Assembly: GCA_964016885.1 (NCBI GenBank)
Contig: OZ024742.1
Span: 171,988,001-172,052,000, forward strand
Reading direction: 5' to 3'
Source: Eledone cirrhosa
Lineage: Eukaryota
Length of the DNA: 64,000 nucleotides
Part shown: positions 32,450-46,945 of the stretch, piece after piece
Position numbering within the stretch: the stretch's first letter is position 1
Layout: the number at the start of each line of letters is the position of its first letter
Notes under the pieces: model-generated
Seen by the model: only the letters and a program-made list of their open reading frames with translations
Told to the model about the DNA's origin: nothing
Databases searched by the model: none
Position numbers and translations under genes: made by a program

Positions 32450-32453
<4 letters not shown>

Positions 32454-33259
32454 ACACATATATTTTTATTGTTTGACCCGAATTACTTGGTCGTTTTGTT
32501 TTGGCTGTGCGGATGATATGTTTAACCATCATCTCAGTGTGTTTGGCCCTTAACGTATGTTGTAGCTCTGATTCATATGATTCATCGAGCGCCTGCCACA
32601 CATATCGGACGTTGATTTTCGTTAATTCCTGAGCTGAAAACGATTCTCGCTAATTTATATTTGTATTAATCTCCAGAGTCTAGCTATTGTGCAGTTAATT
32701 TTATTGATTTTTTTCAGTTACTTATATTGACTGTTGAATAGCTCTGTTATATTTAACCATTCTGTCGAGGGCTTTATTCGATTTGTGATATTTTCCATTC
32801 TCGCAATAATACACAACTGAATCATTCGCTTAATAGAGGTGTTACATCCCTTGCTGAATCCCACGAGGGGTCAGTAATAGCCACACTATCTATAGCATCT
32901 TGGAGCAAAACCCGTTGAAAACACGACTGCCTTGTTCATCATCTCACCAGAAGCCCACATTCTTCATGTAGGCGGACAGTACCTGATTTGGAGTCGCAGA
33001 AACCAATACTGAATTTTACCATCAGTCCAGGGTCCGGGAAAGTATCAACACATATATTTTTATTGTTTGACCCGAATTGCTTGGTCGTTTTGTATTGGCT
33101 GTGCGGATGATATGTTTAACCATCATCTCAGTGTGTTTGGCCCTTAACGTATGTTGTAGCTCTGATTCATATGATTCATCGAGCGCTTGCCACACATATC
33201 GGACGTTGATTTTCGTTAATTCCTGAGCTGAAAACGATTCTCGGTAATTTATATTTGTA
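32450..33259. repeat. 594-bp tandem unit, ~1.35 copies, homologous to the 605-bp unit
   Basis: CAACACATATATTTT at 32452 and 33046; flanked by (TA)n. Confidence 0.88.
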
Positions 33260-33305
33260 TATATATATATATATATACGCATACATACACACACGCGCGC
33301 ACACA

Positions 33306-33391
<86 letters not shown>

Positions 33392-33434
33392 CACACACAC
33401 ACACTCACACACACACACACACACACACACACGC

Positions 33435-33503
<69 letters not shown>

Positions 33504-33861
33504 TGTGTATGTATGTATGTGTGTGTGGGGGTGGGGGTGGAGAGAGTGGAACTCTATATAAGAAATTTCCCCGATAGTGCCCGTCTGAAACATTAGAAAT
33601 GAGAAGTCTATAATATTTTCGATAATTTAAAAAAAGATGTTCCGATCAATAAATATCGCTAGATAAATCACGAATCACTATTCAATTTATAGAACCAAAC
33701 TATCATTAGAAACTATATAAATTAGTTGGTTAAAATACGTGTCGCCTCTAGTGATAAGTCAAACAATCAAGAACTTTCTAGAAATATGAACATCAGATCG
33801 TGCACTCAATATTCCACCTCAATGACAGGAAGCTATGGTGATATTTCAACACTCCACTCAC

Positions 33862-33889
33862 TATATATATATATATATATACATACATA

Positions 33890-33923
<34 letters not shown>

Positions 33924-42073: not shown

Positions 42074-43598
42074 TTGAATTGAGTTCTCTTCAGGGACACC
42101 GCAACCATTAAGATGATCTAGTCAGTCGTCTCGGGCGCATACTTTAGATGTACTCGTTACTGAACCTAAAAGGATCAGTTTCGTACACATTTACATAATT
42201 AAATGAAACATACTGAGCTCCTGTGGTCAATAAATCGGAGAATCTTTTCAGTGTAGCAACGTTGTGGAGTTGGTCGTAGAGTGCTATGCCTATCACATTA
42301 TTTGACCTATGCGATTATAGAGTTTAGTGAGAAATGGTCGTATAAATGTTATGAATTGTCTCAATTTGACCTACATGATGATGGGTTGTGTAGTGGCAAA
42401 TAGATTTCGTAATGATCTTAGTGCGTTTAGTATAAACTGTTTCAAAAATAGGTGATTCAACTTATTAATAGTAAGTTAAATTTATTTGGTAGAAAGGAAT
42501 ACAAAAGAGGGAAAAGGGGGGCGCATATTGTAGTCTTATCTTATGTTACAAAACATTGAGATGGTGGATTTGGTTGTGTTGATGAAATATCGAGTCTGTG
42601 ACAGCTGTAACATCTTAGATATATACGCCAGATTCCTTATGTGATCTGTATATCTTCATTGTAAATGTCAGCTAATCTTCCGATGAAAGGCATTTCCTAT
42701 TTCAATAATAGACCTCAGCTATTACTTTATAATGTTGGACATATATTTGCTGTTGATACTGTTTTTTTTTACAATTATAATAGCTATTGTTACTGTAGTG
42801 CTTGGGATAACAGGTAGGGCGTCAGAAAAAAAATGCTTTACAATGTAATTCCTAAGTTCAATTCACAACGAGGAGAAATCTGCATTTCATCTGACCATGG
42901 TCAATAAAATATGGTACCAGTTAAGCACTGGTTTGATATAATCTCTTTTTCCCTTCTCCCGAATTGCTCATCATGTGCCAATGTCAGAAGCAAAGAGTTA
43001 CAGCTCTTGAGAAGGTTTATGTTTAGGCAAAGTGCTAAGGGCGCCAGGTATAGTGCTTCACGACACGTTGTTACAACACTTAACGTTCTGAGTCCAAAAC
43101 CTGCAATGGCCAACTTTACATTTCATCTTTTCGAATTTGATAAAAAAGGCTCTAGATCAGGACAGGTGGAGTGGTAAAAATATCCAAAAGGCGGACGAGG
43201 TATTTCGCTGTATATAATTCAGCACTGTGCATTTTGAATTCTAATCCCGCCTCCTAACAAGTCGATATTGAAGTACATTACTCTGTGTGTTCTATGTTCA
43301 CCTTGTTCGTAAATAATGAATTAACATAAATACTTTTCTATCTAAATTTGCGATCTAACACATGTTTTACTGACGGAAATATGATAAACGCATACTCACA
43401 CACATGCACACACACACACAAACATACACACATGAAGTCCATCGCCGGGAAATTAAAGTTCTATACACAAAAAATTCAAGTATAAAATCTATTCTTTTTG
43501 ATGTGAAAAGAAAATTTCTTTCGTCGTGTACTATACACATACCATGAATATATAATAAATAAAAGCACATCAGGTGCTTTATTCAAATTTAAATATCT

Positions 43599-43693
<95 letters not shown>

Positions 43694-43716
43694 AATATAT
43701 ATATATATATATATAT

Positions 43717-45293
43717 CTCGTTGATAAAGTATTTCCTGTCCGCCGCTCTCTAGAAGTCTTATATATTTTATGTGGGCTGATAGTGGGCGATTTAAGGATT
43801 TACAGAAACCCAAGAAGCTAGATTTGCCATCTTTCTAGTGGGTCCGGGTAAGCTTTTTACATTCATATGATTTATTGATTTATTGATATTTTATCTGAGT
43901 GACCCGAATCTTCCTGATCGTAATTTTTCGGTCGTATGGTTGATTTTAGACATAATCTATGTGTGTTGGTATTTTAACGATAGTTATAGCTCTGATTTAT
44001 CTGAATTATTGAGCCCTCTGCCACTCATGTCGAATTTTGTTAATCGTGAACTCGTGCGCCGATTTTTCGATACTCGATTATTCTACTATATTTAGCTCTA
44101 GACTTAGCTATTGACCAGTTAATTTTATTGTTCATTTTTTGTCGATTCTATTAAATGATGAATAGCTCCTGTTTATTTTAACATGTCTATTGAGCACTCT
44201 TATTCGATATGTGATATTCCGCATTCCCGAATAATTTTCGCGGATATAGGGGTTATCTCCCTTGCTGGATTCCATGTGCGTTTTCAGCTAGGGTTGGCTT
44301 TTTTATTCGTTTGGACAAAGCTCGTTGATAAAGTATTTCCTGTCCGCCGCTCTCTAGAAGTCTTATATATTTTTATGTGGGCTGATAGTGGGCGATTTAA
44401 GGATTTACAGAAACCCAAGAAGCTAGATTTGCCATCTTTCTAGTGGGTCCGGGTAAGCTTTTTACATTCATATGATTTATTGATTTATTGATATTTTATC
44501 TGAGTGACCCGAATCTTCCTGATCGTAATTTTTCGGTCGTATGGTTGATTTTAGACATAATCTATGTGTGTTGGTATTTTAACGATAGTTATAGCTCTGA
44601 TTTATCTGAATTATTGAGCCCTCTGCCACTCATGTCGAATTTTGTTAATCGTGAACTCGTGCGCCGATTTTTCGATACTCGATTATTCTACTATATTTAG
44701 CTCTAGACTTAGCTATTGACCAGTTAATTTTATTGTTCATTTTTTGTCGATTCTATTAAATGATGAATAGCTCCTGTTTATTTTAACATGTCTATTGAGC
44801 ACTCTTATTCGATATGTGATATTCCGCATTCCCGAATAATTTTCGCGGATATAGGGGTTATCTCCCTTGCTGGATTCCATGTGCGTTTTCAGCTAGGGTT
44901 GGCTTTTTTATTCGTTTGGACAAAGCTCGTTGATAAAGTATTTCCTGTCCGCCGCTCTCTAGAAGTCTTATATATTTTTATGTGGGCTGATAGTGGGCGA
45001 TTTAAGGATTTACAGAAACCCAAGAAGCTAGATTTGCCATCTTTCTAGTGGGTCCGGGTAAGCTTTTTACATTCATATGATTTATTGATTTATTGATATT
45101 TTATCTGAGTGACCCGAATCTTCCTGATCGTAATTTTTCGGTCGTATGGTTGATTTTAGACATAATCTATGTGTGATGGTATTTTAACGATAGTTATAGC
45201 TCTGATTTATCTGAATTATTGAGCCCTCTGCCACTCATGTCGAATTTTGTTTATCGTGAACTCGTGCGCCGATTTTTCGATACTCGATTATTC

Positions 45294-45300
<7 letters not shown>
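43717..45300. repeat. 605-bp tandem unit, 2.6 copies (block 1)
   Basis: CTCGTTGATAAAG at 43717, 44321 and 44926; (TA)n flanks. Confidence 0.95.
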
Positions 45301-45338
<38 letters not shown>

Positions 45339-45361
45339 AATATATATATATATATATATAT

Positions 45362-46938
45362 CTCGTTGATAAAGTATTTCCTGTCCGCCGCTCTCTAGAA
45401 GTCTTATATATTTTATGTGGGCTGATAGTGGGCGATTTAAGGATTTACAGAAACCCAAGAAGCTAGATTTGCCATCTTTCTAGTGGGTCCGGGTAAGCTT
45501 TTTACATTCATATGATTTATTGATTTATTGATATTTTATCTGAGTGACCCGAATCTTCCTGATCGTAATTTTTCGGTCGTATGGTTGATTTTAGACATAA
45601 TCTATGTGTGTTGGTATTTTAACGATAGTTATAGCTCTGATTTATCTGAATTATTGAGCCCTCTGCCACTCATGTCGAATTTTGTTAATCGTGAACTCGT
45701 GCGCCGATTTTTCGATACTCGATTATTCTACTATATTTAGCTCTAGACTTAGCTATTGACCAGTTAATTTTATTGTTCATTTTTTGTCGATTCTATTAAA
45801 TGATGAATAGCTCCTGTTTATTTTAACATGTCTATTGAGCACTCTTATTCGATATGTGATATTCCGCATTCCCGAATAATTTTCGCGGATATAGGGGTTA
45901 TCTCCCTTGCTGGATTCCATGTGCGTTTTCAGCTAGGGTTGGCTTTTTTATTCGTTTGGACAAAGCTCGTTGATAAAGTATTTCCTGTCCGCCGCTCTCT
46001 AGAAGTCTTATATATTTTTATGTGGGCTGATAGTGGGCGATTTAAGGATTTACAGAAACCCAAGAAGCTAGATTTGCCATCTTTCTAGTGGGTCCGGGTA
46101 AGCTTTTTACATTCATATGATTTATTGATTTATTGATATTTTATCTGAGTGACCCGAATCTTCCTGATCGTAATTTTTCGGTCGTATGGTTGATTTTAGA
46201 CATAATCTATGTGTGTTGGTATTTTAACGATAGTTATAGCTCTGATTTATCTGAATTATTGAGCCCTCTGCCACTCATGTCGAATTTTGTTAATCGTGAA
46301 CTCGTGCGCCGATTTTTCGATACTCGATTATTCTACTATATTTAGCTCTAGACTTAGCTATTGACCAGTTAATTTTATTGTTCATTTTTTGTCGATTCTA
46401 TTAAATGATGAATAGCTCCTGTTTATTTTAACATGTCTATTGAGCACTCTTATTCGATATGTGATATTCCGCATTCCCGAATAATTTTCGCGGATATAGG
46501 GGTTATCTCCCTTGCTGGATTCCATGTGCGTTTTCAGCTAGGGTTGGCTTTTTTATTCGTTTGGACAAAGCTCGTTGATAAAGTATTTCCTGTCCGCCGC
46601 TCTCTAGAAGTCTTATATATTTTTATGTGGGCTGATAGTGGGCGATTTAAGGATTTACAGAAACCCAAGAAGCTAGATTTGCCATCTTTCTAGTGGGTCC
46701 GGGTAAGCTTTTTACATTCATATGATTTATTGATTTATTGATATTTTATCTGAGTGACCCGAATCTTCCTGATCGTAATTTTTCGGTCGTATGGTTGATT
46801 TTAGACATAATCTATGTGTGATGGTATTTTAACGATAGTTATAGCTCTGATTTATCTGAATTATTGAGCCCTCTGCCACTCATGTCGAATTTTGTTTATC
46901 GTGAACTCGTGCGCCGATTTTTCGATACTCGATTATTC

Positions 46939-46945
<7 letters not shown>
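45362..46945. repeat. 605-bp tandem unit, 2.6 copies (block 2, a 1645-bp duplication of block 1)
   Basis: Same start, end and diagnostic variants as block 1; the ORF track repeats at +1645. Confidence 0.95.

Follow-up and report, generated by a model that had tools for sequence, protein, structure and literature searches.

The stretch analysed here is a 64,000-nt window of the Eledone cirrhosa genome (contig OZ024742.1, positions 171,988,001 to 172,052,000, forward strand; positions below are those of the window), and its subject is a pair of related tandem repeats, with units of 594 and 605 bp, that lie in (TA)n tracts and each carry a predicted hammerhead ribozyme.

Two diverged repeat units in (TA)n tracts

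A period scan places the 594-bp repeat at 32442-33271 and the 605-bp repeat at 43757-45316 and 45402-46961 (features in Table 1). A first-pass annotation of the window had described two real, homologous, non-coding units that are colinear around a circle, and this description holds. Aligned as monomers round the whole circle, the units are identical in 371 of 626 columns (59%; blastn E 1e-35), the shared blocks that had been listed are invariant, and 13 invariant blocks of at least 7 nt link the two; the longest ATG-initiated open reading frame (ORF) of a doubled unit encodes 86 amino acids (605) or 39 amino acids (594), and the guanine-cytosine (GC) content of the two units is 36% and 39%. 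The non-integer copy numbers and the (TA)n surroundings were likewise confirmed. The 605-bp repeat had been read as one continuous array from 43717 to 46945, but it actually consists of two identical blocks of 1582 bp, with 2.61 copies in each and a block period of 1645, each behind the same interrupted (TA)n; the region thus counts as one insertion, duplicated afterwards either locally or by the assembler. Neighbouring copies within a 605 block are one indel and two substitutions apart, and the copies of the 594 array show four differences in the ~216 internal positions over which they overlap.

The tandem junction recurs in sequencing runs X1, X4, and X12, and run X5, which comes from another organism, holds a contig that returns with the 605 period. 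In run X4, a small data set of unrecorded kind (perhaps low-coverage DNA or RNA), one haplotype dominates over 44321-44925, with a depth of ~300 over most of the unit. The idea that the + strand forms a structured RNA gains little from whole-unit folding: the 605 + strand folds with a z of -2.9 (20 shuffles, 1 as good), but the 605 - strand (-0.5) and the two 594 strands (-0.1 and +0.1) are near zero.

Table 1. Positions of the repeat units, their predicted ribozyme domains and their insertion features in the window
Feature	Position	Strand	Details
594-bp unit	32452..33259	+	1.36 copies, in (TA)n; period scan, alignment
605-bp unit, block 1	43717..45298	+	2.61 copies, first copy 604 bp; three hammerhead domains (cores 43721, 44325, 44930)
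605-bp unit, block 2	45362..46943	+	letter-identical to block 1; three hammerhead domains (cores 45366, 45970, 46575)
(TA)n target flank with one interruption	43593..43716; repeated 45299-45361
Further (TA)n flanks	32409-32451, 33260-33280, 46944-46979
594 hammerhead domain	32911..33038	+	helix I 32911-14/33035-38; core 32915-21 (UUGAAAA); helix II 32924-30/32990-96; GAAA 32999-33002; helix III 33002-04/33031-33; predicted cut after 33034
605 reference hammerhead domain	44321..44453	+	helix I 44321-24/44450-53; core UUGAUAA 44325-31; A.A mismatch, then helix II 44333-41/44400-08; long arm with tandem G.A pairs 44347-95; GAAA 44410-13; helix III 44413-16/44445-48; distal helix 44422-27/44439-44; predicted cut after 44449
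Candidate lock, invariant block TGACCCGAAT	44505..44514; 594: 32474-83, 33068-77	+	5 nt complementary to the cleavage-site strand
Fixed 3' end into (TA)n	45298..45301 (phase 44693-96; also 46943-46; 594 unit 33259-60)	+	alignment, reads
Conserved branched domain just 3' of the fixed-end phase	44700..44800; 594: about 32669-32769	+	folds, alignment

A type I hammerhead motif with a variant core

The first-pass annotation had found no canonical CTGANGA..GAAA core and had suggested that the units may use another processing motif. Exact CTGANGA is indeed absent from both strands of either unit, which are thus without the canonical C3-U4-G5-A6-N7-G8-A9 core, but every full unit contains a complete type I hammerhead with a U3-A8 core (UUGANAA), at homologous positions 44325 (605) and 32915 (594) of the + strand, and the suggestion of another motif falls away. 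Both units follow the type I (C-G-S) order, with a helix I of 4-5 bp, the core, helix II with its long arm, GAAA, helix III, and GUC; G12-A13-A14, the A15.1-U16.1 pair and H17 are present in that order in each. Four to five pairs form in helix I, six to seven in helix II and three to four in helix III, the helix II arm measures 77-78 nt, and three of the invariant blocks named in the first-pass annotation turn out to be parts of the hammerhead. At N7 of the 594 core, most relatives read UUGAUAA (4345 of 4540 in depth in X1; 37 of 38 reads in X12).

Penelope hammerheads, the U3-A8 variant of Schistosoma Cercyon among them, have been described with the U3-A8 core, with a helix I of 4-5 bp, with a long helix II and with a base left unpaired after A9 (PMC4209133), and the U3-A8 covariant is natural and reported to be active in vitro (PMC3088659). 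The units thus carry a type I hammerhead with a core variant that is rare yet published, and are predicted to self-cut. Accepting this variant core, they possess the retrozyme feature of one type I hammerhead per tandem unit. The tandem G.A motif in the helix II arm is a candidate for a tertiary contact between helices I and II.

The descriptor used for the scan accepts both versions of the 3-8 pair, long loops and as many as two mismatches at the helix II base. It finds the motif once per monomer and on the + strand only, in all seven places with a complete domain (six in the 605 blocks, one in the 594 array), and it recovers, as a positive control, the canonical hammerhead of a neighbouring 481-bp unit. 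Among dinucleotide shuffles, it matched on either strand in 1/3000 (605) and 4/3000 (594) cases. The unconstrained minimum-energy fold of the isolated domain is the same as the hammerhead-constrained fold in both units (difference 0.0 kcal/mol). Comparison of the two units shows 11 of 19 homologous core-proximal positions paired in both, seven in one and one in neither. Helix II displays two compensatory changes, and its register forms 7/9 and 6/9 pairs, as against 2-5 when slid by 1-3 nt. Among population variants (substitutions only, from 40 of 164 rows for 605, thin at the 5' edge, and 40 of 45 for 594), five of those listed for the 605 domain lie in helices, where all keep or restore a pair, and three more lie in a loop; the eight listed for the 594 domain comprise two that restore a pair, one that exchanges a mismatch for another and three at unpaired positions, the other two being taken up below. 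The block pairs AGCTATT/AATAGCT and GGGTC/GACCC, earlier taken as conservation of structure, are invariant on both sides and so display no covariation.

It is very unlikely that the units carry a different ribozyme, be it hairpin-like, a scrambled hammerhead or of an unknown class. By eye, an AGAA/NGAY internal loop and an AGAAAC string do resemble loops A and B of the hairpin ribozyme, but both look-alikes belong to the hammerhead arm and core; the 3' strand of hairpin loop B, GUANAUUAC (definition from PMC8216279), has no exact match (0) in the two units, whichever strand is searched, and helix 2 is capped. The C-G-S block order with nested stems is that of an ordinary type I hammerhead and not of a scrambled one (SGC/CSG/GCS). 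Other candidates were rejected as well: a type II hammerhead with GACCCG as helix I has no core after GACCCG, and a hammerhead at the NTGNTGA site 44760/32731 has no GAAA partner. Resemblances to hepatitis delta virus (HDV)-like ribozymes, twister and the selenocysteine insertion sequence (SECIS), judged by eye against consensus sequences and, among models, with Rfam, were rejected too. An Rfam scan with E up to 10 returned no ribozyme match over 31355-33260 (8 weak hits) or 43717-45300 (0 hits), a weak negative, since the same scan missed the canonical hammerhead of the 481-bp neighbour; the whole-window scan was dominated by microsatellites.

Insertion ends and the proposed copying mechanism

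The way in which the arrays end bears on how they were made. In the alignment, the 594 array and both 605 blocks stop on the right at one homologous phase, 4-7 nt ahead of a shared CTCYAGA block and each with 3-5 nt of TA microhomology, whereas their left (5') ends lie at differing phases. Permuted phases, as proposed earlier, are thus seen for the starts but not for the stops, which share one phase that is also found at other loci, where loose (AT)n follows 44696 in 323 raw reads of run X11 and three contigs of run X4. Four sequencing runs were mapped on the 605 monomer for this analysis. In run X1, the summed contig depth, which does not equal copy number, drops from 199,200 to 35,061 across 44696, with 158,000-319,000 over the preceding 125 nt; over the equivalent point of the 594 unit, it drops from 48,668 to 6,214 (14,000-149,000 before, 1,200-23,000 after). 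This asymmetry fits many 5'-truncated copies with one common 3' end, and the element is longer than one unit, yet not freely permuted. Most loose ends in the restriction-site-associated DNA (RAD) runs (44527, 44612, 44638, 44726/29, 44809) lie at AATT sites and were treated as probable library artefacts. The (AT)n end of the 594 family is not among the 18/140 loose ends listed, and run X7 gave 0 matches on the 594 unit, a zero that may be false.

One X4 contig, from a single locus, consists of an inverted piece linked at 32629 to positions 32495-32558 in direct orientation, after which (AT)n follows, and one X12 read likewise has an inverted join, the other arm ending at 32558 before (AT)n; such a two-armed inverted layout is known for Penelope elements (Craig 2021, PMC8557442). 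Of note, the variable left ends 43717 and 32452 are both situated at the open end of helix I: the 605 copy begins on the first base of the helix I 5' strand and the 594 copy 5-8 nt past the 3' strand. This position may reflect stalling of the reverse transcriptase (RT) at the ribozyme domain, or chance.

These ends also bear on the possibility of a plain satellite, or of a tandem duplication at the DNA level with chance motifs; a plain satellite had been named as a counter-explanation in the first-pass annotation itself. The two 605 blocks are an exact duplicate made at the DNA level or by assembly, and the 594 unit folds no better than its shuffles, as this explanation would have it, but it does not account for scattered insertions with one fixed end at (TA)n, the polarity of the depth, the inverted join or the conserved ribozyme fold; the shared end phase largely rules it out, and we see hardly any likelihood in it.

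A fixed 3' end combined with a variable 5' end is the Penelope-type footprint of a non-LTR (long terminal repeat) retrozyme. The fixed end of each unit is situated within or next to an unpaired linker, directly 5' of a conserved branched domain whose closing helix shows one compensatory change, from T-A to C-G; this end is 225-247 nt downstream of the predicted cut, and 199 nt downstream in the 481-bp neighbour. The Penelope protein of the anole initiates at fixed internal sites and depends on RNA located ~55-60 nt 3' of the first of them (derived from +111-118 and +172; PMC11167929). The branched domain is a candidate, and likely, docking site for the RT.

We therefore regard it as fairly probable that the two repeats are diverged subfamilies of a non-coding, non-LTR retrozyme, with a U3-A8 hammerhead and a fixed 3' end at (TA)n, likely copied by a Penelope-type enzyme. 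This agrees with the earlier proposal of a retrozyme-like, non-coding element of the + strand that probably relies on a Penelope-type, (TA)n-targeting RT, a proposal now sustained by the fixed 3' end, the variable 5' end, and the hammerhead. The life cycle would start with transcription of a tandem copy from the + strand. Judging from the in silico fold and the covariation, the ~135-nt hammerhead domain would fold during synthesis and cut after GUC, thereby releasing monomers of ~600 bases, and helix III is long enough that dimer formation should be unnecessary. The monomers might then be circularised by a ligase of the host, a step reported for the retrozymes of coral, mussel, and axolotl, and segments flanking the ribozyme are predicted to pair with the cleavage strand, preventing the circle from being cut again. 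A presumed RT/GIY-YIG protein of the Penelope type, acting in trans, would bind the branched domain and nick (TA)n; reverse transcription would begin internally at one site, corresponding to the fixed end observed, and the enzyme would copy more than one unit of its template, possibly a circle, before dropping off at variable points, leaving 1.36 and 2.61 copies. By analogy with related elements, a circular RNA is plausible for these units.

The segment that may protect the circle is the invariant TGACCCGAAT block, 30-52 nt downstream, which, as the sole one among 12 other blocks, has a 5-nt complement to the cleavage strand, and which displaces helix I in folds of both units. As an argument from energy, the lock was rejected, because the 605 unit failed its control: shuffled flanks also displace helix I (probability <0.1 in 125/150, with 105/150 at or below the real flank). 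For the 594 unit, 116/150 shuffled flanks give a probability <0.1 and 3/150 lie at or below the real flank. As shuffled flanks usually displace helix I too, it is the conservation of the block that speaks for a lock, and a pairing of flanking segments with the cleavage strand that spares the circle from re-cutting may be suggested only weakly. The fuller picture built on it, that of an animal retrozyme lineage with viroid-like control, in which a large, monomer-active hammerhead tolerating an N.A insert at the helix II base would be held by its long helix II arm and combined with a conserved antisense lock and a separate conserved domain for the RT start, is tentative, and we think it doubtful.

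Several observations weigh against the retrozyme interpretation, and in particular against an active ribozyme. The stability of the isolated domain is unremarkable (z of -1.8 for 605 and +0.4 for 594). The helix II pair next to the core (10.1-11.1) does not form, being A.A in 605 and C.A in 594; after this mismatch at the base, 605 has G-C, while 594 has a second mismatch, A.C, and then C-G. An additional A that precedes G12 has no counterpart in the hammerhead papers compared, and such hits were rejected by Perreault 2011 unless activity had been measured. With natural flanks, the hammerhead fold lies 0.6-2.8 kcal/mol above the minimum, and in circles 2.8 and 6.3 kcal/mol above it. Two of the eight 594 variants would break a modelled pair, and the comparison rests on two full sequences. 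The match rates of the descriptor in dinucleotide shuffles are optimistic, since the descriptor was written after the motif had been seen and the domain borders came from the model. In Xenopus, eight of nine retrozymes were without cleavage in vitro (Li 2026, 10.64898/2026.07.22.740005), and the hammerhead of the anole element requires protein and can be dispensed with for insertion (Frangieh 2024, PMC11167929). As for an autonomous partner, the units have no match in a Penelope-like remnant in the window (47740-49900), and six short blocks have none in the supplement of Craig 2021.

A rival reading keeps the element and its Penelope-type copying but has linear transcripts of several units as the template, with a hammerhead that is slow, protein-dependent or vestigial and no circle formed, the unit being the terminal repeat (pseudo-LTR, pLTR) of a Penelope-like element that is now mobile alone. 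We hold this to be possible, if somewhat unlikely. The anole protein inserts uncleaved RNA equally well (PMC11167929), non-autonomous, head-to-tail derivatives of Penelope-like elements (PLEs) without a hammerhead exist (Craig 2021, PMC8557442), and the mismatches at the base of helix II would fit a vestigial ribozyme. The 594 copy moreover begins ~9-12 nt 3' of the predicted cut phase, which fits a cut linear RNA, a weak point drawn from one of the three arrays in the window. Against this reading, the core, GAAA, and GUC are retained in units that are 59% identical overall, and helix II shows compensatory changes; and each 605 block runs through three intact domains, which favours a circle, since a linear template would have to contain three uncut sites in one RNA.

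Relatives, neighbours and significance

Taken as a retrozyme, the family probably belongs, as a variant, with the known animal retrozymes that Penelope-type enzymes copy, and is not a new kind of RNA. Like the non-LTR retrozymes of metazoans, it consists of non-coding tandem units with a type I hammerhead each and a GC content <45%, and co-occurs with Penelope elements; it differs from them by units of 594-605 nt, the U3-A8 core, the 77-78-nt helix II arm, and a long helix III. The units had been thought longer than any described metazoan non-LTR retrozyme, which is true of the 150-450 bp given by Cervera and de la Pena 2020 (PMC7229834) but not of the 51-972 bp covered by the retrozyme survey of Li, Clavereau and Pollet 2026 (10.64898/2026.07.22.740005). 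In most metazoan circles the hammerhead was predicted to stay free, whereas here it is predicted to be blocked in the circle, a trait that recalls plant LTR retrozymes and viroids (PMC7229834), in which the ribozyme is likewise predicted to be blocked by a complementary segment and which share the ~600-nt size; in contrast to these, however, the hammerhead is of type I and not type III, there is no LTR layout, and the host is an animal.

Compared with metazoan PLE hammerheads, which work as dimers and whose helix III is minimal or palindromic (PMC4209133), helix III here has 3-4 bp plus a distal helix and is nearer to that of fungal and protist monomer cutters; an extra A precedes G12, and no ORF lies between the repeats. 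The insertions resemble those of PLEs (Frangieh 2024, PMC11167929; Craig 2021, PMC8557442) in starting internally at a fixed point, in being truncated to varying extents at the 5' end, in their AT-rich or (TA)n targets and in an occasional inverted arm, whereas the units are non-autonomous and show TA microhomology at the fixed end, unlike the anole start site, which lacks target homology (PMC11167929). Searches for relatives gave 0 matches for one conserved block in viral and metagenome contigs; a gapped pattern hit 120 + 3 loci, none of which had a blastn match to either unit at E < 0.01, and these hits were put down to chance. Literature searches found no paper on this family, the query for cephalopod retrozymes gave only Craig 2021, and none of these searches turned up the combination of a 600-nt size with a long arm on helix II, a long helix III, the N.A insert and the candidate lock.

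Other elements of the window are of related kinds. The whole-window hammerhead scan gave 16 rows for 15 cores, seven in the 594/605 units, two in the 481-bp unit and six elsewhere, and three of these six likewise have the N.A mismatch at the helix II base. The 481-bp tandem unit (31355-32411, 2.19 copies, canonical type I cores at 31661 and 32142) is an ordinary retrozyme that shares its (TA)n tract with the 594 unit. The Penelope-like remnant, a 5'-truncated element on the - strand with no RT seen in the window, includes a GIY-YIG-like ORF at 49216-49800 (194 amino acids, with a Cys-rich linker by eye), for which no Pfam family was found and which has GIY-YIG proteins among its nearest Atlas clusters (score 0.96, with the family on 23% of the members). 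One of the hammerhead-like motifs, at 48158-48035, lies 1 kb 3' of this ORF and has a ~105-nt helix II arm and a C.A mismatch; the element also has an inverted partial copy (49815-49890) and, at 47756-47820, hammerhead core halves that form a second inverted pair. Further motifs of this type lie at 53598-53669 (+) and 61495-61544 (+), both with the N.A mismatch, and at 22605-22561 (-), while 11129-11167 (+) and 9501-9463 (-) form an inverted pair of the same sequence. A family of short, hairpin-rich repeats, which have inner stems besides a long terminal one, is found beside (TA)n at 46980-47140, with relatives at 4078-4199, 22806-22836, and 50080-50274. Broken ORFs at 19349-20929 (-), 26670-27555 (-), 27885-28544 (+), and 52155-53058 look by eye like fragments of Helitron Rep/helicase and non-LTR retrotransposons, and a near-perfect palindrome of 110 bp (22844-22956) is similar to a miniature inverted-repeat transposable element (MITE).

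An apparently ribozyme-less family thus turns into a retrozyme of the kind that is missed by CUGANGA searches with short loops, and such families are probably undercounted. If cutting were confirmed, the hammerhead consensus would be widened by the long arms and the N.A insert, which recur in other motifs of the window. The fixed end next to a conserved domain bears on how Penelope proteins pick their start site, and the candidate lock on how the circles of animal retrozymes avoid being cut again. Should the reading with a lock and a start domain be true, these units would be a compact substrate from nature for mutating the cutting, the locking and the internal initiation separately.

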